Below, piece by piece: positions 6,831 to 24,154 of a stretch of DNA of 24,154 nucleotides. The notes beneath the pieces were generated by a model. That model was not told the DNA's origin, did not search any database, and saw only the letters and a program-made list of their open reading frames with translations. Numbering within the stretch: position 1 is the first letter of the stretch; each line of letters begins with the position of its first letter. The stretch is from a virus (lineage: Duplodnaviria > Heunggongvirae > Uroviricota > Caudoviricetes), in IMG/VR virus record IMGVR_UViG_2537562172_000007. The stretch is one strand, 5' to 3'. Position numbers and translations under genes: made by a program.

Positions 6831-7241
6831 ATGGATCAGGTAGTCATTTTTAAACAAATATTTGATAAAGTTCGAAACGATTTAAACTATCAATGGTTTT
6901 ATTCTGAGCTAAAACGTCACAATGTCTCACATTACATTTACTATTTAGCCACAGAGAATGTTCATATTGTATTAAAAAATGATAATACAGTGTTATTAAA
7001 GGGCCTAAAAAACATTGTGTCTGTCAAATTTTCAAAGGATAGGCATCTTATAGAAACGACCTCTAATAAGCTGAAATCCAGAGAGATCACATTTCAGGAA
7101 TACAGAAGAAACCTTGCTAAAGCAGGAGTTTTTCGGTGGGTTACAAATATCCACGAACAAAAAAGATATTACTATACCTTTGATAATTCATTACTATTTA
7201 CTGAAAGCATCCAGAAAACTACACAGATCTTACCACGCTAA
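6831..7241 (+). CDS. ydfO: DUF1398-like prophage protein
   Basis: ORF 6816-7241; ATG at 6831 has a GGAAGG Shine-Dalgarno 6 nt upstream, giving 136 aa; position after ynfO as in Qin. Confidence 0.7.
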
Positions 7242-7392
7242 ACCATAACGTCCGGCTTCTCTCACTCCTGAGCCGGACTGCATTGGTTTAATAAAAACCA
7301 TCAACAATTGTGATTTAGATATTCGGAACCATTCAAATATAACAAAACCCCGTAAAAACGAGGTTTATGGATAAATTTTATTATTGAATACA

Positions 7393-7566
7393 TCAGATTA
7401 AATTAATCTTGACATCATAGCTTTCAAGACCCGTCATTTTTTCCCGTGCGGTAAACTGAATACTGGTAACTTCTTTCCCGGTCTTTTTCTTAAGTTCAAT
7501 AATTTTTTTTGTTATATATTCAGAAATATCTGCTTCTGCTTTTGTTTTTAAGTTTTCAATATTCAT
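7393..7566 (-). CDS. gnsB: GnsA/GnsB family small protein, 57 aa
   Basis: Manually translated MNIENLKTKAEADISEYITKKIIELKKKTGKEVTSIQFTAREKMTGLESYDVKINLI; AAGAGGAAA Shine-Dalgarno upstream; absent from the ORF track because under 60 aa. Confidence 0.75.
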   Translation of the reverse strand: MNIENLKTKAEADISEYITKKIIELKKKTGKEVTSIQFTAREKMTGLESYDVKINLI

Positions 7567-7737
7567 CATTTCCTCTTTTAGTCTGTTATGACTTTCCAGT
7601 TACACAGTAAGTCGATTATATGGTGCAAACGTGTAAAAGATAAGATGAAACATCGCAATAATCAACATACGATAGTCTAAATTTTACACAAACAGACAAA
7701 GAGAATTTTCCTGAATTATCAATGCAATAGCATCAAA

Positions 7738-7893
7738 TCAACTCAAGAGCCTTATTGCTGCTTCCAGAATTTCTTCTGAAGTAACATGTCGATCCGCGGC
7801 TACATAAATGACTTTATGATCTCCGGTCAGAGATGGAAACCCTGCGGCCATTACAGTAAGGTGTGTTTTTTCGCCATTTGGATATTCACGCAT
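7738..7893 (-). CDS. ynfN: small cold-shock-associated prophage protein, 51 aa
   Basis: 63-aa ORF; internal ATG at 7893 (MREYPNGEKTHLTV...) gives the recalled 51-aa YnfN length. Confidence 0.65.
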   Translation of the reverse strand: MREYPNGEKTHLTVMAAGFPSLTGDHKVIYVAADRHVTSEEILEAAIRLLS

Positions 7894-8010
7894 GATGGTG
7901 TTAACTCCAGTCATCGCTGGCACTACCACTGCTGGTTCAGAGTTAAAAAAACTATGATTTTTTTCATGATGTTACCGTAGTATGTGAGTATCCATCGAAT
8001 AGACACCAAG

Positions 8011-8031
8011 CAAAAAAGCTCCCGAAGGAGC
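8011..8031 (-). terminator. rho-independent terminator candidate between cspI and ynfN
   Basis: Minus-strand hairpin GGCTCC-TTCG-GGAGC followed by TTTTTTG. Confidence 0.5.
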
Positions 8032-8238
8032 CTTCATTTTCACTTTTTTAAATCCAACGACAGACGGCTGGCATTTAAGTATTGTGAAATATTATCAAAT
8101 GTAATCATCATTGATTTACAAAAGATACATTTTGCCCCGAAAGGATTCATGTCAGAAACATCAAAAGATGATGTTCTATACTGGGAACCATGACAACACG
8201 GGCATCTAAAGTGAATATGGTTTGTAATATTGTCTACC

Positions 8239-8451
8239 TCAAAGCGCCACTACATGAACAGCGGCAGGACCTTTAGGTCCGTTCTCAATACCAAATTCAA
8301 CTTCCTGATTCTCAGTTAATGTTTTGAAATCGTTGCTCTGAATTGCTGAGAAATGGACAAACACATCTTTGCTGCCATCTTTCGGCGTGATGAAACCAAA
8401 ACCTTTTTCAGGGTTAAACCATTTCACTAAACCAGTCATTTTGTTAGACAT
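8239..8451 (-). CDS. cspI: CspA-family cold shock protein
   Basis: 70 aa with cold-shock domain motifs KGFGFI and VFVHF; sequence consistent with recalled CspI. Confidence 0.9.
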
Positions 8452-8813
8452 AATTATTACCTTTTGAAGAAATTAGCCCTTGGGCAGAATGGTCCGAAAA
8501 AAAATATCAGAGAGAAAAACCAACAAGGAAATCTCAAGAGGTACAAATAATAAAATTATAACAATGACTGCTTCAGATAAATTTGTAACAAACCAGAACA
8601 CCATTAACGCATGATTAACCACCCATAGCAAGGATTACTTTTGTAAAGAAAAACACAGCAATGAAAGAATAGCTTTATTTATTAATAAAACGTGTCATTC
8701 TGATTAAGACCTTTTATCTTACCCTTAAGATTTCAGGAATTTTGGCTCATGGAAGAGTCCTTTTTATTTAAATTTTACATTCCGCGATGTAAATGTTCCG
8801 ATTTAATATTACC

Positions 8814-9837
<1,024 letters not shown>

Positions 9838-9841
<4 letters not shown>

Positions 9842-10149
9842 AGATATTTATGATGAGGACGCTCGTGCTTATTGGCAGGATTTTCAATCTTAAAGGAGTA
9901 CTGATGCTGCAGATAAGACTCAACTTTTTCTGACAATTTTTCTGCTACTTCCAGGAAGACTTGCCGGACGCTCCTTCTGGCTGCTGCCTCATAAAACTCC
10001 AGCGCAGCTCCTTCAACACGGTCCATGGCGACATCCAGGTCAAAAATTTCACCGTCAAAGCGTTCTTTGTCCTGTAAGGCTACAGTTACCGTAACTTTAT
10101 TCTCAAAATTACGGACTCCTTTCACAACCAGTTCATAGTCTTGAGTCAT
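9838..10149 (-). CDS. ydfR: DUF1327-like prophage protein
   Basis: 103-aa ORF between holin and endolysin, as recalled for Qin. Confidence 0.7.
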
Positions 10150-10153
10150 TGGA

Positions 10154-10369
10154 TTACTCTCCTCTCGCAGCCTTACGCCTGTCTTCTTTAATCTTGAAAT
10201 AAAGATTTGTCAGATACGTCAGCAGGCCAAAAACCAGGCTACCCAGCACACCGATTGCAGCCCACTGTGACGGAGTTACTTTATCGAGTAACTGCAATGC
10301 CCAGAAACCAGCATTACCCGCCGATGTGCCATAGGCAACACCTGTTGTTAACTTATCCATTGATTTCAT
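10154..10369 (-). CDS. essQ: class II holin (phage 21 S-like pinholin) with dual-start motif
   Basis: ATG at 10369 gives 71 aa starting MKSMDK (Met1-Lys2-Ser3-Met4 dual start as in S21); two TM segments; the ORF track's longer 96-aa start is unlikely. Confidence 0.85.
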
Positions 10370-10588
10370 ATCCTCACCCCGATGTACACGGATGGTGCAA
10401 TATGTTTGAAAAGATCGGAGTCTACGGGGTAGTTTTGACAGCACACGTTGTTCTCAACGGCGCTAAAAAAACATACACATTAAAAATGTGGGTAATTATT
10501 TTGAAAGAAAGTCATATATAAAATAATAATACGAGAAATGTTTTCATATTTAGTGTACTGTATACGGCCATTTATACAGGAAAAGCCT

Positions 10589-10759
10589 ATGTCAGAACGT
10601 AAAAACTCAAAATCACGCCGTAATTATCTCGTTAAATGTTCCTGCCCAAACTGCACCCAAGAGTCAGAACACAGTTTTTCAAGAGTACAAAAAGGTGCCC
10701 TTTTGATCTGCCCTCATTGCAACAAAGTATTCCAGACAAATCTTAAAGCTGTAGCCTGA
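10589..10759 (+). CDS. small zinc-ribbon protein (CSCPNC...CPHC), 56 aa
   Basis: ORF 10538-10759; internal ATG at 10589 has AGGAAAAG upstream; two CxxC pairs; antisense to the late operon. Confidence 0.45.
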   Translation: MSERKNSKSRRNYLVKCSCPNCTQESEHSFSRVQKGALLICPHCNKVFQTNLKAVA

Positions 10760-10814
10760 TTGATTTTATTAGTAACAAGTATTTTTTATATTTTAATAAT
10801 ATATTTAAAGCAGA

Positions 10815-10838
10815 TAATAAAAAACCCGCCTGAGCGGG
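10815..10838 (-). terminator. rho-independent terminator downstream of cspB (possibly bidirectional)
   Basis: Minus strand: CCCGC-TCAG-GCGGG followed by TTTTTTATTAT. Confidence 0.6.
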
Positions 10839-11122
10839 TTTGAGATTGTGGTGCTTTTTGTGGGAGTCATCCACTTACGCACTTTGTTTTGCCATGCCAG
10901 CAGTTAGCTTCTGCTGTAAAACTATTCATGCAGCAAACCTGCACTTCACCACAATGGTTAGCATACTTTTCCTGATTAAGATTTTGCCAAATATGCTAGC
11001 CATTGTTTCATGTATTGGACCTCCTTACTTTTTATTAAAGAGATCCAATATTCACTACTCTGTCCGTATCTCTACTCAGGCATCAGCCTTCTTCGTTATC
11101 GTATACAGACGAGCGATGAATT

Positions 11123-11338
11123 TTAATCAGTAATGATGACATTTGCTGCTGCAGGACCTTTAGCACCACTCTCTATAGAGAAGGTAACCTTTTGACCTTC
11201 AAATAAGGTTCGATAATTATCATTCTGAATCGCAGAAAAATGCACAAACACATCTTTACTACCATCAACAGGAGAAATAAAGCCGAAACCTTTATCAGCG
11301 TTAAACCATTTTACTAAACCAGTCATTTTATTTGACAT
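11123..11338 (-). CDS. cspB: CspA-family cold shock protein
   Basis: 71 aa [34 protein letters not shown]...; matches recalled CspB. Confidence 0.9.
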
Positions 11339-11638
11339 TCTACATTCCTTAACTTGAGCCTTTCGGCATAAATGGTTTGCATAACAGAAACGACTTCGTA
11401 CTTAATTGGAGAGACTCAAAGAAGGAATAAGTGAATAACACCTGAAATGAGAACTGCTTTAGTAAACTACTTCGTATATCGTCTGTTCTTCAAACCGACG
11501 CAATCATTAACGCATAGTTGAACATATGAAGCAATGTTTATTTTAGACATCCAGCCATCTTCAACCCCATCAAAAAACTATAGCTTTCTTCAGGAACGTG
11601 TGTATAGTGCGCCAAGTTATCAGTATTAAGGAATTTTT

Positions 11639-11851
11639 TTGTCCCGTAAAATGACAGGAATTGTCAAAACCTTTGACGGCAAAAGCGGCAAGGGTCTTAT
11701 CACCCCATCCGATGGTCGTATCGATGTCCAGCTTCATGTTTCAGCGCTCAATCTCCGCGATGCAGAAGAAATTACCACCGGATTACGCGTGGAATTTTGC
11801 CGGATAAATGGTCTGCGTGGCCCTTCAGCTGCCAATGTTTACCTTTCATGA
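11639..11851 (+). CDS. cspF: CspA-family cold shock protein paralogue
   Basis: 70 aa [37 protein letters not shown]...; divergent from cspB. Confidence 0.9.
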
Positions 11852-12136
11852 GCTATATTAAAGCTTTAATTTCAGGCCCCATCGGATCACACATGGAGAG
11901 TTTTTATGAATAACCCCGTCTGTCTTGATGACTGGTTGATTGGCTTTAAAAGCTTATGCTGTACTTTGGCCGTAATAGCTCTGCTAATAATATAATAAGC
12001 AGACTCATTGTGTTTAGGGACATTGTACTGGAAGAAAACATTTTAAACATCAGGCAAATAACCAAGTCACCAGCTAAATAATAAGTTAACAGACATGAGT
12101 CCCGGGATGAGATTCAACATTACCATTGCCCCATTT

Positions 12137-12163
12137 AAAGCACAAAACCCGCTCATCAGCGGG
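12137..12163 (-). terminator. tR'-like intrinsic terminator downstream of the late promoter
   Basis: Minus strand: CCCGCT-GATG-AGCGGG followed by TTTTGTGCTTT. Confidence 0.6.
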
Positions 12164-12212
12164 TTTTCTACTTTTTCTTAACGTCGGGTATACAAAGCCC
12201 ATCGTTGAAAAA

Positions 12213-12241
12213 ATTTTATCCATATTTTTTGAAAAATGCAA
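12213..12241 (-). promoter_or_regulatory. pR'-like late promoter (-35 TTGCAT, 17-bp spacer, -10 TAAAAT)
   Basis: Near-consensus sigma-70 hexamers on the minus strand about 35 bp downstream of the quuQ stop and about 50 bp upstream of the terminator hairpin. Confidence 0.5.
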
Positions 12242-12272
12242 ACATCATGTCGCCATCTTCAGCAAAAATCAT

Positions 12273-13025
12273 TTATCTCGTCACCTTCCTCAATTGCGCT
12301 TCCGCGTATGCTTCTTCCTGCCAGCACTTTGTTACCAGTTTACCAATGACGTCCGCATACCCCTTATACCACTGATAATCGGTCAGGTCTGGTACCAGCT
12401 TCTGGACATGACGTCGTGCCAGCGTGGTCGGTAAACGACTAAACCGGTTTCCATTACAACGCCCACAAATCTTATATACCGGTACGCCATGAAACCGGGT
12501 TCTTTTTTCATCCAGAACAATCCCTTTACCCTTACACCCTCTGCACGCTGTGCTGGCTTCGCCCTTACCATGGCAATGCTGACATAGTTCCTTCACCCAT
12601 TCTTCCTTGATTACAGATTCCCCGCGTCTGTAGTGTTTCACCACTTCGCGCAATACATTATAAAATCCCGTACCTGAACAATGCTCACAGCGAGCCTTAC
12701 TTGCCGCAGACCTGGAGTAATCAGCAAAGGCAAAACTCACGAGGTAAGGAATAATCTGTAACCGGATTTCTTCACTCAATTTGTTCAATGTCGGGTTATC
12801 CAGTGCCATCGCGTAATTTAGCAGGCCTTCAATCGCAAACTGAGGGTCCTGAACACCAACTTTTGCCAGAAATAAGGCCAACCCAAGTGGTGCTTTCGAC
12901 TGCACCATCCCCTGCGCTGCCATTACATCCGTAATTGTTAAACAACCGGTGCCTGTCGCTGGAGCGTCATCGCTCAATTTTGGAGATTTTGGGGAGTAAT
13001 ATTTTGGTAAGGCTTCAAGGTTCAT
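12273..13025 (-). CDS. quuQ: late-gene antiterminator Q
   Basis: ATG at 13025 gives 250 aa (MNLEALPKYY...); Cys/His-rich zinc-binding region; the ORF track start at 13055 is a TTG. Confidence 0.85.
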   Translation of the reverse strand: MNLEALPKYYSPKSPKLSDDAPATGTGCLTITDVMAAQGMVQSKAPLGLALFLAKVGVQDPQFAIEGLLNYAMALDNPTLNKLSEEIRLQIIPYLVSFAFADYSRSAASKARCEHCSGTGFYNVLREVVKHYRRGESVIKEEWVKELCQHCHGKGEASTACRGCKGKGIVLDEKRTRFHGVPVYKICGRCNGNRFSRLPTTLARRHVQKLVPDLTDYQWYKGYADVIGKLVTKCWQEEAYAEAQLRKVTR

Positions 13026-13038
13026 GCTCGTTCTCCAC

Positions 13039-14088
13039 TTACGCCAGTACGCCAATTGCCAGCGCGCGATCGATAAAACGAAATATCAGCTCCAGTTGGG
13101 AGCCATACTTATCTTCAAATGCCACTGTATCCGTATGCAGCTCGTTGTGATGCTTTCTGCACAAAGGCAACACAAAGAGATCATGTGCTTTTGTTCCCAT
13201 TCCGCCCTGCCCGTGACCAATCAGATGATGCGGATCGTCGGCTGGCATACCGCAGCAAGCACACGGCTGTGTCTTAACCCAACGTGTGTATTTCTCCTTA
13301 ACCCAGCGGCGACGTTTAGGCAGCTTCATGAAAGATTCCGGAGACTCTGGATCAACGGTGATGCTTACCACCGTCTTTTCCTGTGGTGATTTTTGTTGCT
13401 GGTGGGCGTAAGGCAACGGTGCAAGATTTTTTGTGCGTTGTTTCAATATGCTGGTGGCGGTCTGCTCTCCCGGTACGATGTCGCTTTCGCGGTACACCGA
13501 GCAGATTTTTTCCGCTGGTAATCCCAGCGAACGACGCGATACAGCCTCAGGTAGTGCATCCACCACCTGATTGCAGACCGCCCACCAGGATAATTCAGCC
13601 AAAGATAATTCCCGCTCCTGCGTACCGCTTATTGCGTGACGGATGACGTCAATCACCCATGCTGTCAGATTTTGTTGAGCAAGCAGCTCCAGTGATTCCG
13701 ATGTCTGGTCACGCAGTTGGTTGTCGCAGTGCCAGCACAACACCATTGCGCCGGTACCATAACGGTGAATGACTGTTTCAGTGTGATGGTAATCGCCATT
13801 AGGCCACTGGCAGGATGTAACATGACGTAATAGCCAGTCGGACAATGCGCCAACGCCGCCAGCAGCACGAATCACCCGTTCGTTACTAAAAAACGGCAGC
13901 AATGTTTTGTCTTCCGCCAGCGGCTGGCGAACGGCAGGAACGACTCCGGATGGCAGATTACGCATGCTTTTTGGTTCCGGTTCCACCAGCACTCGAGGAT
14001 TATGAAATATCTGTATGGATTCACGGCCCGGCTTAAGGACCACCAGCCCAAGCTCAGGCACCAGAACAGGTCTAAGTAATACCCGCAC
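13039..14088 (-). CDS. ydfU: DUF968-like prophage protein with C-terminal HNH-like motif
   Basis: GTG start at 14088 preceded by TGGAGGTAAC; 349 aa; C-terminal motif CACCG...HHLIGHGQGG...PLCRKHHNELH fits the HNH pattern. Confidence 0.75.
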   Translation of the reverse strand: MRVLLRPVLVPELGLVVLKPGRESIQIFHNPRVLVEPEPKSMRNLPSGVVPAVRQPLAEDKTLLPFFSNERVIRAAGGVGALSDWLLRHVTSCQWPNGDYHHTETVIHRYGTGAMVLCWHCDNQLRDQTSESLELLAQQNLTAWVIDVIRHAISGTQERELSLAELSWWAVCNQVVDALPEAVSRRSLGLPAEKICSVYRESDIVPGEQTATSILKQRTKNLAPLPYAHQQQKSPQEKTVVSITVDPESPESFMKLPKRRRWVKEKYTRWVKTQPCACCGMPADDPHHLIGHGQGGMGTKAHDLFVLPLCRKHHNELHTDTVAFEDKYGSQLELIFRFIDRALAIGVLA

Positions 14089-14089
14089 G

Positions 14090-14368
14090 TTACCTCCAGA
14101 TCCGTTGCTGGAAAGTGCGGGACGCACGTGGTGGGCGTTCGGAATAAGGCAGCCTGACAGAGATTATCCAGTGCCGATAGTCGAGACTGAGAGCTTTCTT
14201 AACCTCGACCCCGCGCCTGCGGTAAGAATGAATCAGCCATTCGGCCTGTTCTGCAGTGCATGGAGGGTGCTGGAACCATTCAGACTTGAATGCGTGAGAA
14301 TACCGCCCGTGCGTGCAGGCAAGAACGGGCGAATTATCAGAATTGTAATATTTTGCGTTGCGTGCCAT
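14090..14368 (-). CDS. hypothetical 92-aa protein translationally coupled to ydfU
   Basis: ATG at 14368 with GGAG 9 nt upstream; stop TAA is 1 nt before the ydfU GTG and embedded in its Shine-Dalgarno sequence. Confidence 0.45.
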   Translation of the reverse strand: MARNAKYYNSDNSPVLACTHGRYSHAFKSEWFQHPPCTAEQAEWLIHSYRRRGVEVKKALSLDYRHWIISVRLPYSERPPRASRTFQQRIWR

Positions 14369-14434
14369 CGGTTTTCTCCGGTGGCACGGTGTTACTCAGC
14401 GGGAGTTCAGCCCCGCGCAAGATTGTAGATGAGT

Positions 14435-14686
14435 TTATTCTCCTGAAAAAGCAGAAAAGCCAGCTTTTATTCCGATCTCTTTCAATGCCTGTAATGAAGT
14501 GACAAACTCACCTTCGCGCAAGATAAATCCGTCCGTGACCCGAGCATCCACAAAATTAATTAACGCAGCCCCATTCTTTCGCAAACACATAATGCGGTAA
14601 TGACTAACAAGATTTCCATTTTCAACGCACACAGCATAGAGGCCATCTTCACAAAAAATTTTACGCAGTTCTTCGATGTTCATCAT
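14435..14686 (-). CDS. rem: Rem, small prophage protein of unknown function
   Basis: 83 aa MMNIEELRKIFCEDGLYAV...; GGAAGGA Shine-Dalgarno; position as in Qin. Confidence 0.8.
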   Translation of the reverse strand: MMNIEELRKIFCEDGLYAVCVENGNLVSHYRIMCLRKNGAALINFVDARVTDGFILREGEFVTSLQALKEIGIKAGFSAFSGE

Positions 14687-14902
14687 CAGAATCCTTCCGG
14701 ATAATTAGCTCTCCCCTTTAAGGGACCATCCCTCTTATCCCTGCGCGCTACTTAAGTATTTTTGATTCTATTCCGGCACCGTCCAGAACTTCAAACGCGT
14801 TGAAAATAAAAACAAAAACCCGCCGAAGCGGGTTAAGTGCGGGTGCGTTGAGGATGCCTGCCACATCAGAGGTGGCGAGGGATTTCTCCCCCGCCGGGTC
14901 TC

Positions 14903-15058
14903 TTACTCCTCAGGTTCGTAAGCTGTGAAGACAGCGACCTCCGTCTGGCCGGTTCGGATTCGTACCTCGCAGAGGTCTTTCCTCGTTACCAGTGCCGTCA
15001 CTATGACGGTTAAACAGATGACGATCAGGGCGATTAACATCGCCTTTTGCTGCTTCAT
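14903..15058 (-). CDS. hokD: Hok-family type I toxin (RelF), 51 aa
   Basis: Manually translated MKQQKAMLIALIVICLTVIVTALVTRKDLCEVRIRTGQTEVAVFTAYEPEE; under the 60-aa cutoff; downstream of relE. Confidence 0.85.
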   Translation of the reverse strand: MKQQKAMLIALIVICLTVIVTALVTRKDLCEVRIRTGQTEVAVFTAYEPEE

Positions 15059-15129
15059 AGCCTGCTTCTCCTGTCAACGCAAAGCAGAAGTGTCACCTTC
15101 GGTGCGAAACAGAGATGTCATGCTTTGGT

Positions 15130-15417
15130 TCAGAGAATGCGTTTGACCGCCTCGCTATATACTTCCGAGCGTTCTCTTTTCCCAACAGAAATCACGAAAA
15201 CGACAACTTTCTCGTCTATAACCTGGTATACAAGGCGATAGCCTGAAGACCGGAGCTTAATCTTGTAACAATCAGGCATACCACGGAGCTTGTTTGCTTC
15301 AATCCGGGGTGACTCAAGTACTTCAACCAGCTTCTTTTTCAACTGTTCACGTACCGTCGAGCCCAGCTTTCGCCATTCCTTTAGTGCCCGCTCGTCAAAA
15401 TCCAGAAAATACGCCAT
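15130..15417 (-). CDS. relE: RelE mRNA interferase toxin
   Basis: 95 aa MAYFLDFDERALKEWRKLGSTVREQLKKKL...; start overlaps the relB stop. Confidence 0.9.
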   Translation of the reverse strand: MAYFLDFDERALKEWRKLGSTVREQLKKKLVEVLESPRIEANKLRGMPDCYKIKLRSSGYRLVYQVIDEKVVVFVISVGKRERSEVYSEAVKRIL

Positions 15418-15656
15418 CAGAGTTCATCCAGCGTCACACGTACTGGCTTAGGATTACGAAGCCGTTCTTTCACTATCTCCACAAGTTCAGCATCTTCATC
15501 ACTCAGGAGTGTCTGTTTGAACGGCAAGCGTTCATTGTCAGCGATATACTCGAGCATGAGACGAAGCGCTTCAGAAGGAGTTACACCCATTTTTTCAAGC
15601 GCGGCGTAAGAACGCGCTTTAAGTTCATCGTCAATACGCAGGTTAATGCTACCCAT
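15417..15656 (-). CDS. relB: RelB antitoxin
   Basis: 79 aa MGSINLRIDDELKARSYAALEKMGVTPSEALRL... with RHH-like N-terminus. Confidence 0.9.
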   Translation of the reverse strand: MGSINLRIDDELKARSYAALEKMGVTPSEALRLMLEYIADNERLPFKQTLLSDEDAELVEIVKERLRNPKPVRVTLDEL

Positions 15657-15668
15657 GTCTTACACCTC

Positions 15669-15693
15669 TTGTAATTACAAATGTCATTACAAG
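15669..15693 (-). promoter_or_regulatory. relBE operator (relO) palindromic repeats
   Basis: Perfect palindrome TTGTAATTACAA followed by TGTCATTACAAG immediately upstream of relB. Confidence 0.6.
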
Positions 15694-15986
15694 TATCGCA
15701 CTACAACATGCTTAGGGCAAGTCACGAAGGAAGTCAGAAAGTAGTCGTAAGAACGGTGATCACTGTCCGCTTTGTGCCAGGAGCAGCCATTGCTAAGTCC
15801 ATCCTGTATTGTGCAGGTCAGCTCGTTTTTAAAGAGTCCGGCCATCATCTTACTGGTACAGACACCATATACTTTGTGACGGTCAGGCTACATATGCACA
15901 ACTCAACTTATTCATCTATTTTTTGCTTTAGCATGTCAGTGTTGCTTTCTCGTCGGCGGGTGAGCGGTGACCTGACCTGTCGATAA
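15681..15986 (+). CDS. ydfV: prophage protein YdfV
   Basis: 101-aa ORF divergent from relB; its first ATG lies inside the relO repeats, so the true start may be the internal Met at codon 10. Confidence 0.55.
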   Translation: MSLQVSHYNMLRASHEGSQKVVVRTVITVRFVPGAAIAKSILYCAGQLVFKESGHHLTGTDTIYFVTVRLHMHNSTYSSIFCFSMSVLLSRRRVSGDLTCR

Positions 15987-16138
15987 AGGAACGTAACACG
16001 TTTTATGCAACACCCGCATGCGGCAGAAAATTATTGCCGAACGTTTACCCCTGTCAACAAGCTTTACTTTCTGAGGCGCGCCAGCCCGCGAGGAAAACAA
16101 TCTGAACATCAAACAATTAATGACACAAGAAATACGAT

Positions 16139-16165
16139 TAAAGATTTTTTTGTGCATGCCGATAG
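16139..16165 (+). promoter_or_regulatory. sigma-28 (FliA) class 3 promoter for flxA
   Basis: TAAAGATT, 11-bp spacer, GCCGATAG against the TAAAGTTT-N11-GCCGATAA consensus, about 25 bp upstream of the flxA ATG. Confidence 0.7.
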
Positions 16166-16188
16166 TGCTTTTTTAAAAGGAGAAATCT

Positions 16189-16521
16189 ATGTCTGTCACA
16201 ATTCAGGGAAATACCTCAACCGTTATTTCAAACAACTCCGCCCCGGAAGGAACATCAGAAATAGCCAAAATCACAAGACAAATTCAGGTGCTGACTGAAA
16301 AGCTTGGGAAAATCTCATCGGAAGAGGGGATGACGACACAGCAGAAAAAAGAAATGGCTGCATTGGTACAGAAGCAAATTGAAAGCCTCTGGGCTCAACT
16401 GGAGCAGTTGTTAAGGCAGCAGGCAGAGAAAAAGAATGAAGACGCGACAGTTCAGCCTGATAAAAAAGAAGAGAAAAAAGACGATACAAATACCGCTGGC
16501 ACCATTGATATTTACGTCTAA
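16189..16521 (+). CDS. flxA: FliA-regulated protein FlxA
   Basis: 110-aa ORF with Gln/Lys/Glu-rich coiled-coil-like sequence; AAGGAG Shine-Dalgarno; sigma-28 promoter upstream. Confidence 0.85.
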   Translation: MSVTIQGNTSTVISNNSAPEGTSEIAKITRQIQVLTEKLGKISSEEGMTTQQKKEMAALVQKQIESLWAQLEQLLRQQAEKKNEDATVQPDKKEEKKDDTNTAGTIDIYV

Positions 16522-16536
16522 GTGACAGCCGTATTG

Positions 16537-16560
16537 TGGCCCTCATCGGGCCACTTTTCG
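16537..16560 (+). terminator. rho-independent terminator of flxA
   Basis: GTGGCCC-TCATC-GGGCCAC followed by TTTT, 16 nt after the flxA stop. Confidence 0.65.
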
Positions 16561-16608
16561 CCATCAGCCTTTTCTTTAAAGACATATTATCTTTGTATCA
16601 TTTCTGAT

Positions 16609-18457
16609 AGTTAACATTACAAGATATAAGTAATGGACGCACTCCCAATTAGTCTATTTAAATCGCCACGAGTTTAACTGACAACCCATGATCAATTATG
16701 AATTGCAACTATTTCTGTAGTCACTTTTGTGGGGACAGTCCACAAAACTGCCAACATCCGCTTCTTGCTCTTAGCGGACATTAGCATAGGCTATTTACCA
16801 TAACGCCTCATTACGCGCACCGCCCAGACTGACTCAGCGCGTTTCTGGCATATCCCCGGTAAAACAAGTAACAAACCACCCGAAAATGAACACCAGAAAC
16901 GCGACTTAAGAATCTACCCTATGAATGGATATGCACTCAACCGAATCGATCTTGGTTTCAATCTTTTTTATCGGGATCAGGCTTCTTTTTAGGTAACTTC
17001 GGGGGCTTAACTTGCTGATGACTTTGCGTTCGGCGCGTAAGCCAGGGATGGTCAGCTTTAGGTTTAACATAGTATTTTGAGCGTAAATCAATACGGGCAT
17101 TATCCACTCGTTCATGGACACTCTTTTCATCATCCAGTGGTATAGGCTCCGGGCCATCAACATACTTTTCCCAGCCCAGCGCTTTCCCGTCATACAGAAC
17201 GTTAATTTCACCGTCAAAGTTCTCGCATACAGTAACAACCGAATGCCTAAGTCGATATCCCCGGCCCTCACTGCGTACCTGAAACGCACTGCTTTTGTAC
17301 TGGAAAGTGAGATTTTTAGACAGAACGCGCTTCGCCTGTAGGCTGAAGATATAACCCAGTTCCTCTTCAGAATGGTGCACATCAAGATGAGCATTATCAG
17401 TAGTACGAGGCGACGTAGCGAACCGGTTGTTATAGGCTTCAATAAAGGTCGGCAACCATGCATTTGCTGTTTCAATATCACTGATATTCTGAAGCCGCAT
17501 TTCTTTGACCAGCCTGTCCTGTAGTGTCTGATTGGCGCGCTCTACCCGCCCTTTTGCCTGCGGGCTGTTGGCATGGATTGGCTCGATGCCCAGTGTCTTT
17601 ATCGCACGAGTGAACTGGGTCAGCTCACCTTCCCGCTCTGGGTTATTTACCCTGAATATACTGTGTCTATCAGAGTAGAGAGCGAGCGGTACGCCATGAT
17701 CATTAAGGTAACCCCGGAGGGTTTCCATGTAAGCCCGGGTTGTTTCAGCAGGCACAAAACGCAACGCCATCAACGCACTGGTGGCATCATCAATGAAAAC
17801 GATCAGTGTACATCTGGGGCCTCGATTTTCAAACCAGTCATGAGGTGAGCCATCAATCTGGATCAGTTCACCGTAAGATGGTCGTCGCATGCGGCGTTGA
17901 TATATACGGGCAATTTTACGACGGCGTTCACGCCATAACCCCTCTTCTATCATCCACTTTCTGAGAGTTTCAACGGATAAAGATAAACCGTGTATCTCGC
18001 GCAATTTTTCGCACGCAAACGTAGGTCCAAAATCAGCGTAACGGCCTTTGAGGAGTGAAATTACTGTTGCTCTGAATTCAGTAGAAAAGGAATTATTAGG
18101 ACGCTTTCCACGTCGGTGGGAAACCAGACCAGAAGGCCCTTCATTTCTATACCGTTGCACCAGACGTTTAACCTGCCGAATAGAAATGCCAATGCGTGCC
18201 GCAGCTTGTTCCTGAATAATCTGAAGTCGGTGGAGTTCCTTATGACTCATCGTAACAGTCTCTTTGATCATGAAAAATCCCCCAGAGAATTGTCTGGGGA
18301 CATTTTAGAATGGTTCAAAGGGGACATTACAGCTTGGTGTTAACAATAGCCTGCTTCTCCGTGCCTTTCGGCACGTAAGAGGCTAACCTACATGTGTCTA
18401 GCATGAAATTGGCCTCAGATTAATGTTAAGCGTCTTGCAGGACGCGTAATGTTAACT
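16609..18457 (-). mobile_element. insertion sequence carrying one rve-type DDE transposase (family unassigned, IS481/ISNCY/IS21-like); boundaries tentative
   Basis: Tentative ends from a perfect 12-bp inverted repeat: AGTTAACATTAC at 16609-16620 and GTAATGTTAACT at 18446-18457; no target-site duplication recognised. Confidence 0.35.
16958..18271 (-). CDS. DDE transposase, retroviral-integrase (rve) fold with N-terminal HTH
   Basis: 437 aa; HTH region (IGISIRQVKRLVQRY), catalytic-core motifs LIQIDGS, ALYSDRHSIF and SPQAKGRVERAN; GGGGGA Shine-Dalgarno upstream of the ATG. Confidence 0.85.
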   Translation of the reverse strand: MIKETVTMSHKELHRLQIIQEQAAARIGISIRQVKRLVQRYRNEGPSGLVSHRRGKRPNNSFSTEFRATVISLLKGRYADFGPTFACEKLREIHGLSLSVETLRKWMIEEGLWRERRRKIARIYQRRMRRPSYGELIQIDGSPHDWFENRGPRCTLIVFIDDATSALMALRFVPAETTRAYMETLRGYLNDHGVPLALYSDRHSIFRVNNPEREGELTQFTRAIKTLGIEPIHANSPQAKGRVERANQTLQDRLVKEMRLQNISDIETANAWLPTFIEAYNNRFATSPRTTDNAHLDVHHSEEELGYIFSLQAKRVLSKNLTFQYKSSAFQVRSEGRGYRLRHSVVTVCENFDGEINVLYDGKALGWEKYVDGPEPIPLDDEKSVHERVDNARIDLRSKYYVKPKADHPWLTRRTQSHQQVKPPKLPKKKPDPDKKD

Positions 18458-18605
18458 GGGGCTTTTCTCTATCTGCCGTTGGTGTCCATGCCCGAGGCAG
18501 ATAGCCTCAAGCACCCGCAGTCATTCTACTTAACTAAGATTTCCCCGCAAACCGTTTTTGTCCAGCACAGTAAATATCCAACTAAACCAATGGAGTTCGC
18601 TGTAT

Positions 18606-18785
18606 TTACCGCCAGTATTCAATGCACATGACCGCCATGAACACCCCTAAAAAAAGGGCATTTATATATCCAAATATTAATATCAAAACATCAACTTTTT
18701 CCATATACCTTGCTGTGAAGATGATGGGCATACATGATGCGAACAACCAGAACGCAACAAACAAAAACTGCAATGCGTTTTTCAT
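18606..18785 (-). CDS. small two-TM membrane protein, 59 aa
   Basis: ATG at 18785 preceded by AGGAGG with 4-nt spacer; MKNALQFLFVAFWLFASCMPIIFTARYMEKVDVLILIFGYINALFLGVFMAVMCIEYWR has two hydrophobic helices. Confidence 0.4.
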   Translation of the reverse strand: MKNALQFLFVAFWLFASCMPIIFTARYMEKVDVLILIFGYINALFLGVFMAVMCIEYWR

Positions 18786-19564
18786 TATTCCTCCTACAAT
18801 CAATGTGCAATTACATTTAAACACACCTCAATTTGGCCGGACATATAAATATCTAAACCAGAAAAAATCACTTACATAGCGTTACAAACTCTTTAGTCTA
18901 AAGGTTCATCGTAAAACATTCCCCATACTTATCAGTCCGTTCCGCGCCAGGTAGCTCATTGCCTTATCTGGCAACCTGTAATCAGGTTTCCGCTTTTTCA
19001 GTTGGCTGGTCGTTTAACCGACATAGTTAATCCATTAATCTAGTTGCCGGATGTTGGTGGATTTTCGCGTTTTAGTTGTTCATAAAAGTGCACAGCTTTA
19101 ACCAGTTCTTCTGATGTAACTGGGACTGGTGAGGCAGTGAATAAGGCCTGAATTTGATAGTTCGGCCTGTCGTTACAATCCTCTTTTTTCGGTACATATT
19201 TCCAGTCACCAGACCACTACTTCCCCTGAAAGTCCGTAACGCCTTTTTTCACGTAGCGATATCGCCATGCCACTGGTTTTGCTTGCCCCGCCGTTTCATG
19301 CCCTTCCTGATAATTAATCTCGCTCATTCATCGCCCCACTCATCACAATATGCTTCGACCGGAGTTTTTCCCGCTTCATAGTCATCACGCTAGGATTCGA
19401 CATCAGCAGCACTTCCACCGCGTAACTCACCATAGTCCATTAATAGTTCATCCCGCTCTTCAAAACTGATGTTATATTTAGCTGAACAAAAATCAGCCAC
19501 TTTGTTCTTCCTCATCGTCTTTTATTTCGTGGTATGAGTAATTGCAGTAGTTAAAGAAAATTTC

Positions 19565-19675
19565 TTATGCTCCGTCATGAATTTCCTCAGGTGTTGCGTC
19601 ATCGTCCACTTCGAATACATCCTCAAAATCTCCACCAGCTATTCCCGTTTCAATAATAATTTTGAACTTTCGCAT
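19565..19675 (-). CDS. hypothetical acidic 36-aa protein (MRKFKIIIETGIAGGDFEDVFEVDDDATPEEIHDGA)
   Basis: Manual translation; a GCCGCCC-GAAA-GGGCGG hairpin sits directly upstream of the ATG with AGGAGG further 5'; very tentative. Confidence 0.2.
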   Translation of the reverse strand: MRKFKIIIETGIAGGDFEDVFEVDDDATPEEIHDGA

Positions 19676-19937
19676 TTCACTACCGCCCTTTCGGGCGGCC
19701 TCCTGATGTTCTGAGGGTGCAGAAATCCATCCGGTTAAGGATTAAATTTTATTTACAGAACTGAATTTAATTATTCAGATATACGTATCTGTAGCCTTAC
19801 GAATCTACTCACTGGATGCCTCTTTCATAAAAATAATCCAGTGGGTTTTATCGTTTTTTCCCTGTTCGTTGACAGATAACAGGTTTTCTGTCTGTCAGTG
19901 CCAGAATCTGGCTTACCGGTATTTGCGTTTCATTCCA

Positions 19938-20294
19938 TTAAAAAATCAGAACGCCGTGCGGCCTCAACACCCGAAAGGCTTCTTTAAATCTCTGTCGCGA
20001 ATCATCACGCCAGGCATCTTTATTCAGCCGTCCATATTTCTTTCCCATCCAGGCGTTATCACCAACACTCTCAAGATACGGAGGGTCTAATACAACCATC
20101 GAAAAAGATGCGTCTGCAAATGATAATGCACGAAAATCTGCGATAATGTCAGGGCTGATAATCAAGCGTCTCCCATTGCGTAATGTGTATCCTTCTTTTC
20201 TGATATCGCTGAATATCGCCCGTTCGTCAGACTTATCGAACCAGAACATGCGGCTGCCACAGCACATATCAAGAATGGTTGCCGGTGCACTCAC
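19938..20294 (-). pseudogene. N6-adenine/N4-cytosine (Dam-like) DNA methyltransferase, N-terminal fragment
   Basis: 118-aa ORF with SAM-binding motif I (ILDMCCGS) and catalytic motif IV (DPPY); ends before any target-recognition or C-terminal region; no MTase-like continuation in any frame downstream. Confidence 0.6.
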
Positions 20295-20557
20295 TGCGCC
20301 ACGTCCTGAAAATTACCCTGATAGAAAGCCAGTATGCGCTGCATAACTTCGCTCTTCCGGCACTCGCGACAGATTATGTTTAGGCGACTGTCGTAGCGAC
20401 GTATTTCTCCGTCAGGTGATGACCAGATAAGGTCCGGATCAACCACAGCAGGTTTCTTCACCTTTGCCCTCGAGAGTTTTTTGCGGGCGTTTTGCCAGTC
20501 CTTACGCGCCTGTTCAGAGGGGAATAACCCGTATCCGGAGCTTAAGTTGCACGCCAT
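20291..20557 (-). CDS. hypothetical protein overlapping the methyltransferase fragment start (GTGA overlap)
   Basis: 88-aa ORF with no Shine-Dalgarno at its ATG; an internal GTG at 20461 with GAGGG upstream would give 56 aa. Confidence 0.3.
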   Translation of the reverse strand: MACNLSSGYGLFPSEQARKDWQNARKKLSRAKVKKPAVVDPDLIWSSPDGEIRRYDSRLNIICRECRKSEVMQRILAFYQGNFQDVAQ

Positions 20558-22508
20558 TGGGTGGGTTAAGCATAAATGTATTCCTGGTGCTAAATGGCCC
20601 GAAATTCAGGCAGAGATGCGCATCTGGAAAAAACGTCGCGAAGGTGAACGCAAGGAAACCGGAAAATACACGTCTGTTGTTGATCTCGCCCGCGCCAGAG
20701 CCAATCAACAGTACACTGAAAATTCAACAGGAAAAATCAGCCCGGTCATTGCTGCCATTCATCGCGAATACAAGCAGACATGGAAAACACTGGATGACGA
20801 ACTGGCCTACGCTCTCTGGCCTAGTGATGTGGATGCCGGAAACATTGACGGCAGCATCCATCGCTGGGCAAAAAAAGAAGTTATCGACAACGACCGCGAA
20901 GACTGGAAGCGTATCTCGGCATCAATGCGCAAACAGCCTGATGCCCTTCGCTACGACCGCCAAACTATTTTTGGCCTTGTCCGTGAGCGTCCGATCGACA
21001 TTCACAAAGATCCCGTAGCACTGAACAAATATATCTGCGAATACCTGACGACAAAGGGCGTGTTTGAGAATGAAGAAACAGACCTGGGCACTGTTGATGT
21101 TCTCCAGTCATCAGAAACACAAACTGATGCAGTGGAAACTGAGGTATCTGATATCCCAAAAAATGAAACCGCGCCGGAAGCTGAACCATCTGTAGAGCGT
21201 GAGGGGCCGTTCTATTTCCTCTTCGCAGATAAGGACGGAGAAAAATACGGTCGCGCAAACAAACTCTCTGGTCTGGATAAGGCACTGGCTGCTGGCGCCA
21301 CTGAAATCACAAAAGAAGAATATTTTGCCCGAAAAAATGGCACATACACGGGCTTACCGCAAAATGTAGATACCGCTGAAGATTCAGAACAACCAGAGCC
21401 GATAAAAGTTACCGCTGACGAAGTAAACAAAATTATGCAGGCAGCCAATATCAGCCAGCCTGACGCCGATAAGTTGCTTGCTGCATCACGTGGTGAATTT
21501 GTTGAAGGGATTAGTGACCCGAATGATCCGAAATGGGTTAAGGGGCTCCAGACCCGCGATTCTGTGAACCAGAACCAGCATGAATCGGAACGGAACTACC
21601 AAAAAGCGGAACAAAACAGTCCAAATGCGTTACAAAACGAGCCAGAAACGAAACAGCCTGAACCAGTAGCGCAACAGGAAGTGGAAAAAGTCTGCACCGC
21701 CTGCGGTCAGACCGGCGGCGGCAACTGCCCTGATTGTGGCGCGGTGATGGGCGACGCAACATACCAAGAAACATTCGATGAAGAGTATCAGGTTGAAGTT
21801 CAGGAAGATGATCCGGAGGAAATGGAAGGCGCTGAACATCCACACAAGGAGAACACTGGCGGCAATCAGCATCACAATAGCGATAATGAAACTGGCGAGA
21901 CGGCAGATCACCCAATTAAGGTGAACGGTCATCACGAAATCACATCCACCAGCAGGACGTGTGACCATCTAATGATCGACCTTGAAACCATGGGAAAAAA
22001 TCCTGATGCCCCGATCATCTCAATAGGTGCAATATTTTTCGATCCGCAAACCGGAGATATGGGACCGGAATTTAGTAAGACTATCGATCTGGAAACTGCT
22101 GGCGGAGTCATTGATCGGGACACCATTAAATGGTGGCTTAAGCAATCACGCGAAGCGCAATCTGCCATTATGACCGATGAAATCCCGTTAGATGATGCAC
22201 TGTTACAATTGCGAGAATTTATCGACGAAAACTCCGGTGAATTTTTTGTTCAGGTTTGGGGAAATGGAGCCAACTTCGACAACACGATTTTGCGCCGTTC
22301 ATACGAACGGCAGGGGATCCCCTGCCCGTGGCGTTACTACAACGATCGCGATGTACGCACAATCGTTGAGCTGGGGAAAGCCATAGACTTCGATGCCAGA
22401 ACGGCTATTCCATTCGAAGGTGAGCGCCATAATGCACTTGATGACGCCCGTTACCAGGCAAAAATACGTTTCAGTTATCTGGCAAAAACTGATCCCGAGT
22501 CAGGCTGA
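20481..22508 (+). CDS. phage exonuclease with C-terminal DnaQ-like (DEDDh) 3'-5' exonuclease domain
   Basis: Exo motifs MIDLETMG, WGNGANFDNTIL and HNALDDARYQ in the last ~190 aa; acidic low-complexity linker with CTACGQTGGGNCPDCG zinc ribbon; start uncertain (TTG at 20481 or ATG at 20616). Confidence 0.8.
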   Translation: MRAFCQSLRACSEGNNPYPELKLHAIGWVKHKCIPGAKWPEIQAEMRIWKKRREGERKETGKYTSVVDLARARANQQYTENSTGKISPVIAAIHREYKQTWKTLDDELAYALWPSDVDAGNIDGSIHRWAKKEVIDNDREDWKRISASMRKQPDALRYDRQTIFGLVRERPIDIHKDPVALNKYICEYLTTKGVFENEETDLGTVDVLQSSETQTDAVETEVSDIPKNETAPEAEPSVEREGPFYFLFADKDGEKYGRANKLSGLDKALAAGATEITKEEYFARKNGTYTGLPQNVDTAEDSEQPEPIKVTADEVNKIMQAANISQPDADKLLAASRGEFVEGISDPNDPKWVKGLQTRDSVNQNQHESERNYQKAEQNSPNALQNEPETKQPEPVAQQEVEKVCTACGQTGGGNCPDCGAVMGDATYQETFDEEYQVEVQEDDPEEMEGAEHPHKENTGGNQHHNSDNETGETADHPIKVNGHHEITSTSRTCDHLMIDLETMGKNPDAPIISIGAIFFDPQTGDMGPEFSKTIDLETAGGVIDRDTIKWWLKQSREAQSAIMTDEIPLDDALLQLREFIDENSGEFFVQVWGNGANFDNTILRRSYERQGIPCPWRYYNDRDVRTIVELGKAIDFDARTAIPFEGERHNALDDARYQAKIRFSYLAKTDPESG

Positions 22509-22587
22509 TTCTTAATGTTCAACTGTCGCCGGTTGTGACTGGTATTCTGCAACCGGCGCTCGTCTGATGTAAGAGATAAAGAAATCG

Positions 22588-22839
22588 ATGAGCGAAGTAA
22601 TCATGATTGTCTCTCCCGGCAAATGGGTATCCGAAGAGCAGTTAATTGCGCTGAAAGGAATAAAAAAAGGTACGTTAAAAAAGGCCCGGGAAAAATCGTT
22701 TATGGAAGGAAGGGAATATAAGCATGTCGCTCATGACGGTATGCCATGGGATAACAGTCCATGCTTTTACAACCTGGAAGAAATTGATCGCTGGATTGAG
22801 CGCCAGGCATCAGCGAGACCAAGACGTCATCTTACTTGA
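22588..22839 (+). CDS. excisionase-like small DNA-binding protein
   Basis: 83-aa basic protein immediately upstream of the integrase, same strand; no strong sequence match recalled. Confidence 0.55.
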   Translation: MSEVIMIVSPGKWVSEEQLIALKGIKKGTLKKAREKSFMEGREYKHVAHDGMPWDNSPCFYNLEEIDRWIERQASARPRRHLT

Positions 22840-22858
22840 CTAAAAGCCACACTAACTA

Positions 22859-24154
22859 ATGAGAGAAGTTGAAATGAAATATCCGACAGGCGTGGAAAAC
22901 CATGGAGGGAAATTACGTATCTGGTTTGTTTATAAAGACGTAAGAGTCAGGGAAAATCTGGGGGTTCCTGACACAGCAAAAAACAGGCGCGTTGCAGGTG
23001 AACTACGCTCCTCTGTTTGTTACGCAATAAAAACTGGTGTTTTCGACTATGCAAAACAGTTTCCCTCCTCACGCAATCTGGAAAAATTTGGTGAGGCCCG
23101 ACAAGATTTAACCATAAAAGAACTGGCTGAAAAATTTCTGGCACTGAAAGAAACTGAAGTCGCCAAAACATCACTCAACACATACCGTGCCGTCATCAAA
23201 AATATCCTGAGCATAATCGGTGAAAAAAATCTTGCCTCATCGATTAATAAAGAAAAATTACTGGAGGTTCGTAAAGAGTTACTGACTGGATACCAGATCC
23301 CCAAAAGTAACTATATTGTTACACAACCAGGGAGATCGGCTGTAACTGTAAATAATTACATGACAAATCTTAACGCCGTGTTCCAGTTTGGTGTTGATAA
23401 CGGTTACCTGGCAGATAATCCGTTTAAGGGGATCTCGCCATTAAAGGAATCAAGAACCATTCCGGATCCTCTTTCGCGGGAAGAATTTATCCGTCTTATC
23501 GATGCGTGCAGAAATCAGCAAGCAAAAAATTTATGGTGTGTTTCTGTTTATACTGGAGTTCGCCCTGGTGAGCTGTGTGCACTTGGATGGGAGGACATAG
23601 ATCTGAAAAATGGAACAATGATGATCAGGAGAAATTTAGCAAAAGACCGTTTCACGGTACCAAAAACACAGGCGGGAACCAATCGGGTCATTCATCTTAT
23701 TAAGCCAGCAATCGACGCTCTCCGGAGTCAGATGACATTAACGAGACTGAGCAAAGAGCATATCATTGATGTTCACCTCAGAGAGTATGGCAGAACAGAA
23801 AAACAAAAATGCACCTTTGTTTTTCAACCTGAAGTGTCAGCGAGAGTAAAAAATTATGGTGACCATTTTACCGTTGACTCAATAAGGCAGATGTGGGACG
23901 CAGCGATAAAACGTGCCGGACTCCGCCATCGAAAATCATATCAGTCGAGACATACTTATGCCTGCTGGTCGCTGACAGCTGGTGCTAACCCGGCATTTAT
24001 AGCAAACCAGATGGGCCATGCAGATGCGCAAATGGTATTTCAGGTATACGGAAAATGGATGTCTGAAAACAATAATGCACAGGTAGCTTTGTTAAATACA
24101 CAGTTAAGCGAGTTTGCCCCAACCATGCCCCATAACGAAGCAATGAAAAATTAA
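22859..24154 (+). CDS. tyrosine integrase (phage integrase family)
   Basis: C-terminal catalytic residues in context (RPGELCAL, HTYACW, Y in YGKWM); N-terminal arm-binding-like region; ATG at 22874 has the better Shine-Dalgarno (GAGAAG); stop at the window end. Confidence 0.9.
   Translation: MREVEMKYPTGVENHGGKLRIWFVYKDVRVRENLGVPDTAKNRRVAGELRSSVCYAIKTGVFDYAKQFPSSRNLEKFGEARQDLTIKELAEKFLALKETEVAKTSLNTYRAVIKNILSIIGEKNLASSINKEKLLEVRKELLTGYQIPKSNYIVTQPGRSAVTVNNYMTNLNAVFQFGVDNGYLADNPFKGISPLKESRTIPDPLSREEFIRLIDACRNQQAKNLWCVSVYTGVRPGELCALGWEDIDLKNGTMMIRRNLAKDRFTVPKTQAGTNRVIHLIKPAIDALRSQMTLTRLSKEHIIDVHLREYGRTEKQKCTFVFQPEVSARVKNYGDHFTVDSIRQMWDAAIKRAGLRHRKSYQSRHTYACWSLTAGANPAFIANQMGHADAQMVFQVYGKWMSENNNAQVALLNTQLSEFAPTMPHNEAMKN

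Follow-up and report, generated by a model that had tools for sequence, protein, structure and literature searches.

What is the open reading frame (ORF) of 92 amino acids (aa) that lies between rem and ydfU in a Qin-type cryptic lambdoid prophage of Escherichia coli, and is its product made for the predicted nuclease YdfU, which is encoded directly behind it? The question was raised by a stretch of 24,154 nucleotides (nt) of virus DNA (IMG/VR record IMGVR_UViG_2537562172_000007; hereafter the window). In this window a preliminary description had pointed to an ORF that looked unannotated, had read its junction with ydfU as a coupling arrangement and had proposed that the small protein could be a regulator, a second subunit or an immunity-like protein of YdfU. 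The overall explanation that we favor, and hold to be rather probable, is that the ORF is a genuine gene of the phage protein family PHROG 1212 that is likely coupled to ydfU, and that it forms a portable module which is not specific to YdfU. The small gene and its parts are placed as follows:

14090 to 14368, minus strand: the 92-aa ORF, stop included (ATG at 14368-14366, 92 codons, TAA at 14092-14090)
14376 to 14379, minus strand: the GGAG Shine-Dalgarno (SD) sequence of the 92-aa ORF, 7 nt ahead of the ATG
14291 to 14368, minus strand: codons 1-26, the N-terminal extension of the Escherichia long form, predicted to be disordered and evolving almost neutrally
14093 to 14290, minus strand: codons 27-92, the conserved 66-aa family core, under purifying selection and with a predicted structure

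Several independent lines of evidence indicate that the 92-aa ORF is a genuine and conserved protein-coding gene. The suspicion that it escapes annotation was justified: in the MG1655 sequence NC_000913.3, where the ORF occupies 1644306-1644584 on the minus strand, nothing is annotated between ydfU (b1560) and rem (b1561), while genomes annotated with PGAP carry the product as the hypothetical protein WP_012304870.1. A single residue separates the copy in the window from that of K-12 (V54 in the window, F54 in K-12). Profile searches with the small protein returned no match in Pfam, NCBIfam or PADLOC; PHROG 1212 aligned to residues 27-92 over profile positions 1-66 of 66 (E 5.1e-36), and this match together with the purifying selection described below shows the gene to be real. 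Relatives were found in a search of 5.8 billion proteins, 129 in number and nearly all from Escherichia, with lengths of 90-92 aa, identities of 58-98% and insertions or deletions that preserve the frame. A tblastn search against phage genomes recovered 20 full-length copies and 39 shorter ones, the latter sharing 39-49% identity over residues 26-92 only. Intact copies of the long form number 156, with 71 different DNA sequences among them, and each measures either 273 or 279 nt. The form is also carried by functional phages, for example mEp460_ev081, Tritos and HannyBb. The GGAG sequence that had been noticed ahead of the start is indeed present at 14379-14376, although about half of the related copies have AGAGA in its place.

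The pattern of substitutions divides the protein into two parts. The ratio of nonsynonymous to synonymous change (dN/dS, Nei-Gojobori) amounts to 0.12 over residues 27-66 and to 0.067 over residues 67-92, and variation is concentrated at the third codon position both in the core (0.30 vs. 0.08 and 0.11) and in the tail (0.19 vs. 0.03 and 0.02). For residues 2-26 the ratio rises to 0.73 with equal variation at all three codon positions, and the only invariant features of this 26-aa leader are its ATG start and its open reading frame. AlphaFold2 predicts residues 1-24 to be disordered and models residues 29-91 as strand-helix-strand-strand followed by a C-terminal helix, with a predicted local distance difference test score (pLDDT) of about 90 over residues 30-70. 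Because dN/dS and AlphaFold2 both split the leader from the core, we conclude that the functional unit is the 66-aa core, to which the Escherichia form adds a weakly constrained leader. A 137-aa ORF on the opposite strand (14015-14428, plus strand) was considered and rejected, since the codon-position substitution pattern fits the minus-strand frame.

PHROG 1212 is a 66-position family of phage proteins whose function is undescribed and which has no Pfam entry. Annotated 66-aa genes are found in Gifsy-2 (STM1021.1n), mEp237 (gp51) and phiES15 (gp17), and homologues of 66-68 aa with 39-50% identity occur in these three, in N15 and in other phages. The N15 member (67 aa; NC_001901.1 35954-36157, or 2955-3158 of locus L287) is unannotated in the RefSeq record and lies between the Q-like gene 40 and gene 41, which encodes an RNase_T exonuclease with a Lar domain. 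The family is narrow, confined to temperate phages and mostly to those of Enterobacteriaceae, because an exhaustive HMMER search of 1.84 billion representative proteins yielded 76 clusters only, typically of 66 aa. Residue conservation spans homologues at 32-50% identity, and the 92-aa protein keeps the family-conserved W31, Y49, G53, D63, L73-P74 and W91. According to the structural model, the core forms a beta-alpha-beta-beta domain, basic in character, that ends in a conserved and likewise basic C-terminal helix; the protein has an isoelectric point (pI) of 10.2 and a net charge of +9, and the median pI of the family is 9.65. The model matched none of the solved structures, a search of the PDB with the family profile gave nothing significant, and Foldseek against BFVD with the same model returned only a member of the family, N15 Orf QD1. 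The window contains no second family copy. When the distant members P0152 and P0177 were each used singly to scan viral contigs, essentially no matches resulted, and A5, an alignment of 36 sequences, proved too diverse for use in finding loci.

With PHROG 1212 members elsewhere the Qin form shares its place in the early-right operon and the stop/SD/start junction with the next gene. It differs from them in the extra 26-aa N-terminal leader and in the 66-nt gap that separates it from hok/rem, in place of an overlap with a DUF1367 gene. A comparable setting is provided by NinD, NinE, NinF and NinH of lambda, which are likewise small (57-68 aa) and whose genes are packed head-to-tail with those of Orf/NinB and Rap/NinG ahead of Q; DLP12 has ninE in the interval from ybcN to ybcO, the exact position of the phiES15 family member. 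These four proteins show no sequence relation to the small protein, however (hhalign probabilities of about 0.1% each), and the Pfam families NinE, NinF and NinH found no match in it.

How, then, is the small gene joined to ydfU? Two further elements define the junction:

14093 to 14097, minus strand: the GGAGG SD sequence of ydfU, within codons 91-92 (TGG AGG) of the small ORF
14082 to 14121, minus strand: an RNA hairpin predicted by RNA folding, CCCGCAC-UUUCCAG/loop/CUGGAGG-UAAC-GUGCGGG

The junction reads CTGGAGGTAAcGTG (reverse complement of 14086-14099). One base separates the TAA of the small ORF from the GTG of ydfU at 14088, and the stop codon lies inside the ribosome-binding site of ydfU, as the preliminary description had it. 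The long-form arrangement TGGAGG-TAA-(C/T)-GTG was seen unchanged in each of the 87 distinct contexts. A 362-aa version of ydfU that starts at a GTG at 14127 (the mechanical longest ORF) was rejected: an upstream in-frame start exists in only 12 of the 87 contexts, the GTG adjoining the small-ORF stop in all of them, and PHROG 96 aligns from residue 14 of the 362-aa version.

The same layout recurs across the family. About 200 family loci were gathered from IMG/VR, GTDB genomes and phage records and the downstream gene was located in each; in approximately 95% of the 196 loci with a callable downstream ORF, the next gene starts 1 nt (long form) or 2 nt (short form) past the stop. The terminal codons are TGG-GGG-TGA, TGG-AGG-TAA/TGA or TGG-GAG-TAA, and the conserved C-terminal Trp-X codons always double as the SD sequence of the next gene. 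The purine run is retained although the terminal amino acid may be G, R, E, K or D, a pattern that points to selection acting on the nucleotides at this position. Synonymous diversity is about 0.45 in the core of the small ORF and again by ydfU codons 23-40, and it drops to 0.09-0.13 across the junction, the lowest level among the printed scan windows. In the predicted hairpin the SD sequence and GTG of ydfU pair with codons 82-86 of the small ORF, CCCGCAC with GUGCGGG, which comprises the start codon and four more bases, and UUUCCAG with CUGGAGG (the SD sequence). Of 29 sequence variants, nearly all are predicted to form this hairpin; where the stem varies, at three positions, C is replaced by U and the pairing is preserved.

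Because the junction, the diversity dip, the hairpin and the GTG start agree with one another, translational coupling of the small ORF to ydfU is the best reading of this locus, and one that finds good support in the sequence. Ribosomes that finish the small ORF would open the ydfU site and reinitiate there, and the output of YdfU would thereby be tied to the translation of its leader gene. The classical coupled pairs trpE-trpD and galT-galK work by termination and reinitiation, with the downstream ribosome-binding site placed within the upstream ORF. The present junction resembles these pairs in the stop and start codons that lie 1 nt apart, in the SD sequence contained in the last codons of the upstream gene, in the weak GTG start downstream and in the predicted hairpin that would sequester the ribosome-binding site; it is unlike them in that coupling is deduced here from sequence alone and that the hairpin statistics are marginal.

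A number of observations weigh against coupling, or against an active small gene in the resident prophage. Further dips in synonymous diversity occur inside ydfU, and recombination at the edge of a module, or common ancestry in the recent past, could also account for the dip at the junction. The pairing probability of the SD sequence and start codon is 0.96 for the native sequence and 0.80 ± 0.11 when the upstream part is shuffled, a marginal difference; 5.7% of the shuffles reach the native value, and the 121-nt fold has a z-score of -0.28. The papers found by the literature search, ribosome profiling of ydfU included, make no mention of the 92-aa ORF. For K-12, a published study reports a strong Rho-dependent terminator ahead of ydfU (PMC9160355), and transcription or translation of this region in the resident prophage may therefore be poor; the stretch that the study treats as lying upstream of ydfU consists largely of the 92-aa ORF. 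The neighbors in this operon are tightly packed in general, with 4-nt overlaps and gaps of 1-13 nt, and the 1-nt spacing alone therefore marks no special or functional pair.

What kind of protein would be placed under the control of the small gene? The features of ydfU are the following:

13039 to 14088, minus strand: ydfU, encoding a DUF968-family protein (PHROG 96) of 349 aa from the GTG start used by PGAP
13135 to 13263, minus strand: His-Me finger/zinc motif, YdfU residues 276-318 (CxxC...DDPHH...K..D...CxxxH...H)
13720 to 13812, minus strand: second invariant Cys/His cluster, YdfU residues 93-123 (CQWP...H101...C118-W-H-C-D-N)

The HNH-type metal-finger pattern that had been seen at the C-terminus of YdfU holds up, and profile searches matched Pfam DUF968 (256.6 bits vs. 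a cut-off of 27.8; E 1.5e-76) and PHROG 96, described as 'HNH endonuclease' (E 4e-171), with additional weak matches to HNHc_6 and RecA_dep_nuc. Residues C276, C279, D284, D285, H287, H288, K300, D303, C310, H314 and H318 are invariant down to 51% identity. The motif itself was published before: YdfU has been assigned to group 7 of the His-Me fingers together with YbcO (3g27) (PMC5714182), and DUF968 was previously portrayed as the fusion of an Orf-like domain with an HNH motif (PMC4118853). YdfU is a DUF968 protein of the His-Me-finger (HNH) type and a predicted nuclease. Its AlphaFold2 model, with only close homologues as input, has a mean pLDDT of 47.6, too poor for use in a fold search, and the fold assignment rests on the published classification (PMC5714182). 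A sequence search of the PDB with YdfU gave nothing significant, PADLOC returned no match for it, and hhalign comparisons with DUF1367 and with lambda NinB, made with shallow profiles, found no relation.

Like other proteins of the DUF968/DUF1364 group (YbcO, PDB 3g27), YdfU keeps the CxxC...HH...CxxxH...H pattern and adjoins RusA and Q; compared with the group, the 349-aa enterobacterial protein adds an N-terminal domain of about 150 residues with an invariant Cys/His cluster of its own. These N-terminal residues match phrog_11007, and the cluster (C93, H101, C118, H120, C121, D122 and N123, around 'LCWHCDNQLR') lies outside the Pfam DUF968 region and is possibly a second metal-binding or HNH-like module. 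Within the operon ydfU takes the place immediately ahead of Q, which in other lambdoid phages is held by Rap/NinG or RusA.

Whether the small protein belongs to YdfU in particular can be judged from the genes that follow it in other loci:

DUF968/YdfU: 83 loci (82 with the long form, plus the short form of Klebsiella locus L111)
RusA: 63 loci
YbcO-like small HNH proteins: 28 loci
NinG/Rap: 17 loci
Rv2179c-like 3'-5' exonuclease (DnaQ-type): 4 loci
HNH-RusA fusion: 1 locus

Among the alternatives to our favored explanation, the one that survives best is that the small protein acts as a general cofactor or regulator for whichever DNA-processing nuclease adjoins it. We consider this possible but unlikely; the protein might direct the nuclease to a host factor or to branched DNA, or else hold its activity in check. 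A nuclease is the next gene in all 196 loci with a callable downstream ORF, five nuclease families are represented, and three genome architectures agree in this respect (the lambdoid nin region, N15 after Q, and contigs in which RdgC, the small gene and an exonuclease follow one another). While the downstream class is constant, the upstream neighbor varies between DUF1367, the NinB-like YbcN (phiES15), RdgC-like genes, Q (N15) and rem/hok (long form). In N15 the RNase_T-type exonuclease gene 41 follows the family member across the junction TGG GAG TAA CA ATG, with a spacing of 2 nt; an exonuclease follows the small gene in PhiR46_1, and RusA and then a YdfU homologue do so in Citrobacter phage Chris1 (L291). 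In Hafnia phage Pocitis76 and Enterobacter phage vB_Ecl_MII_001, however, another small ORF comes after the family member and the nuclease stands further on. The sampled loci are moreover heavily interrelated, the conserved gene order of the lambdoid nin region would look alike without any physical interaction, and the action of one small protein on unrelated folds is mechanistically demanding. We likewise give only a low probability to the claim that PHROG 1212 proteins are universal cofactors or governors of recombination nucleases of unrelated folds (His-Me finger, RusA, DnaQ-like), supplied stoichiometrically by means of coupling. If this were true, 'small gene plus any nuclease' would be a functional cassette instead of resulting from a conserved order of the genes.

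Behind the small gene, the nuclease modules too are mosaics, as is seen in Chris1 and in an IMG/VR contig (L188) in which a YbcO-like HNH protein is fused to a RusA-like domain (204 aa).

The improbable idea that the small protein works with a recombination mediator encoded before it, namely a DUF1367 or NinB/Orf-like protein, would make the Qin copy an orphan that remained after hok/rem replaced the upstream module. DUF1367 is the upstream gene in 100 short-form loci, with a gap of -11 to +4 nt and irrespective of the nuclease downstream, and phiES15 has the NinB-like YbcN in the same position. The sampling behind these figures is biased to one subfamily, however, in that the query alignment A6 ranked loci by their similarity to P0153. 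A different upstream gene is present in N15 (Q), in the RdgC contigs, in Pocitis76, in L111 and in all long-form loci, and despite this difference strong purifying selection still acts on the core of the long form.

A dedicated partner of YdfU, that is, a specific second subunit, a regulator or an immunity-like inhibitor of its HNH nuclease, had been the suggestion of the preliminary description. Here the suggestion found no support, and we regard such a role as quite improbable. The DUF968 gene does stand 1 nt after the long-form small gene in 79 of 80 sampled loci, and the Klebsiella locus L111 joins even a short form to a DUF968 gene. In one E. coli genome the two proteins are fused in frame (P0212, 438 aa), the 92-aa protein minus its last three residues being followed by full-length YdfU; this fusion, which a 13-nt deletion at the junction could explain, is a single event in one sequence on one 420-kb contig and may be a natural variant or an assembly error. 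Against a dedicated role, RusA, NinG, YbcO-like and DnaQ-type nucleases of unrelated folds also follow the family. YdfU homologues are present in 174 phage records and the small family in 59; because at most 59 records can hold both, at least 115 of the 174 YdfU-bearing records are without a family member, and the functional phages mEp460 and SfV are among them. In these two, whose flanks we inspected (SfII and SfIV are also among the YdfU-homologue matches), a KilA-N gene precedes the YdfU homologue instead. This variation in nuclease partner, together with the many YdfU phages that lack the family, is what makes a YdfU-specific subunit or immunity protein unlikely.

The comparison with known pairs leads in the same direction. 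Nuclease-immunity pairs such as colicin E9/Im9 and type II toxin-antitoxin operons also have a small gene upstream and adjoining stop and start codons. Unlike in these systems, the small gene and ydfU assort independently, and non-toxic resolvases, RusA for example, are found beside the family as well. With a pI of about 10 the small protein is basic and not acidic, unlike colicin-type immunity proteins or DNA mimics, and the defense and toxin-antitoxin profiles of PADLOC gave no match.

That the ORF is spurious or merely a cis-acting leader, in which translation of the frame (for coupling or for blocking Rho) matters and the protein does not, would agree with the near-neutral N-terminal 26 codons (dN/dS 0.73), the variable terminal residue (G/R/E/K/D) behind constant purine-rich SD nucleotides and the Rho-dependent terminator upstream of ydfU (PMC9160355), but it is very improbable in view of protein-level purifying selection on core and tail (0.12 and 0.067) with synonymous changes tolerated, residues conserved across homologues at 32-50% identity and a confident structure prediction for the core.

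We therefore return to the portable module. The 92-aa ORF is a gene in the early-right ('nin'/recombination) operon that this Qin-type lambdoid prophage carries, and it would assort independently of its neighbors while usually standing just 5' of whichever recombination nuclease the phage carries. Its product is most likely a nucleic-acid-binding accessory of the phage recombination module. The recurrent position 5' of a nuclease could indicate a general functional link or, equally, a conserved order of the nin region with module exchange at the junction.

The wider setting is that of a Qin-type prophage whose sequence is 99.9% identical to K-12 across 6900-17142 of the window and divergent past 17142. 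On the minus strand the genes follow in the order relB, relE, hokD, rem, 92-aa ORF, ydfU and ydfT/quuQ, and the immediate neighbors of the pair are:

14435 to 14686, minus strand: rem, the upstream neighbor, separated from the 92-aa ORF by a gap of 66 nt
12273 to 13025, minus strand: ydfT/quuQ, encoding antiterminator Q, which starts 13 nt downstream of ydfU

In the 66-nt spacer between rem and the small ORF (14369-14434, minus strand) there is a short inverted repeat, GCGGG-8 nt-CCCGC, which no T-run follows. A promoter-like TTTTCA-16-TACAAT at 14449-14422 shares sequence with the end of rem; such matches are no commoner in the region than in shuffled sequence. Past ydfW (17143-24154), the place of the K-12 dicC/dicA/dicF/dicB immunity region is taken by a partial ISNCY transposase along with several pseudogenes (DUF7167, DUF977 and a truncated gene with a 3'-5' exoribonuclease domain), which are followed by intact excisionase and integrase genes. 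This layout is also present in E. coli O141:H4 P13-6 and in 216 other genomes. Within this portion of the window, which is unlike K-12, Rfam identified a sok antitoxin RNA (104 bits) at 18345-18516 (minus strand); hokD would accordingly not be the only hok/sok-type locus, and next to hokD itself Rfam reported no sok match. The same database placed an IS009 RNA at 3341-3539 (minus strand) and two cspA-type thermoregulator leaders at 8212-8597 and 11107-11499 (both minus strand), which by position, as mapped from the J53 annotation, are the 5' untranslated regions of cspI and cspB.

Altogether, this is a modest finding on annotation and on a protein family, given that the HNH motif of YdfU was already known. 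Even so, MG1655 (NC_000913.3), the best-annotated bacterial genome, omits a 92-codon gene that is clearly under purifying selection, and the RefSeq record of N15 likewise omits its homologue. The 346 nt that have been treated as an 'intergenic' region or 5' untranslated region of ydfU, among others in the work on Rho termination, are mostly coding, and the notion of an immunity-type partner for this HNH nuclease is removed as unsupported. PHROG 1212 marks the site immediately 5' of a recombination nuclease in many temperate enterobacterial phages and thus aids the annotation of nin regions. The terminal codons of the small gene that double as the ribosome-binding site of the nuclease suggest that nuclease output is gated through the leader gene.

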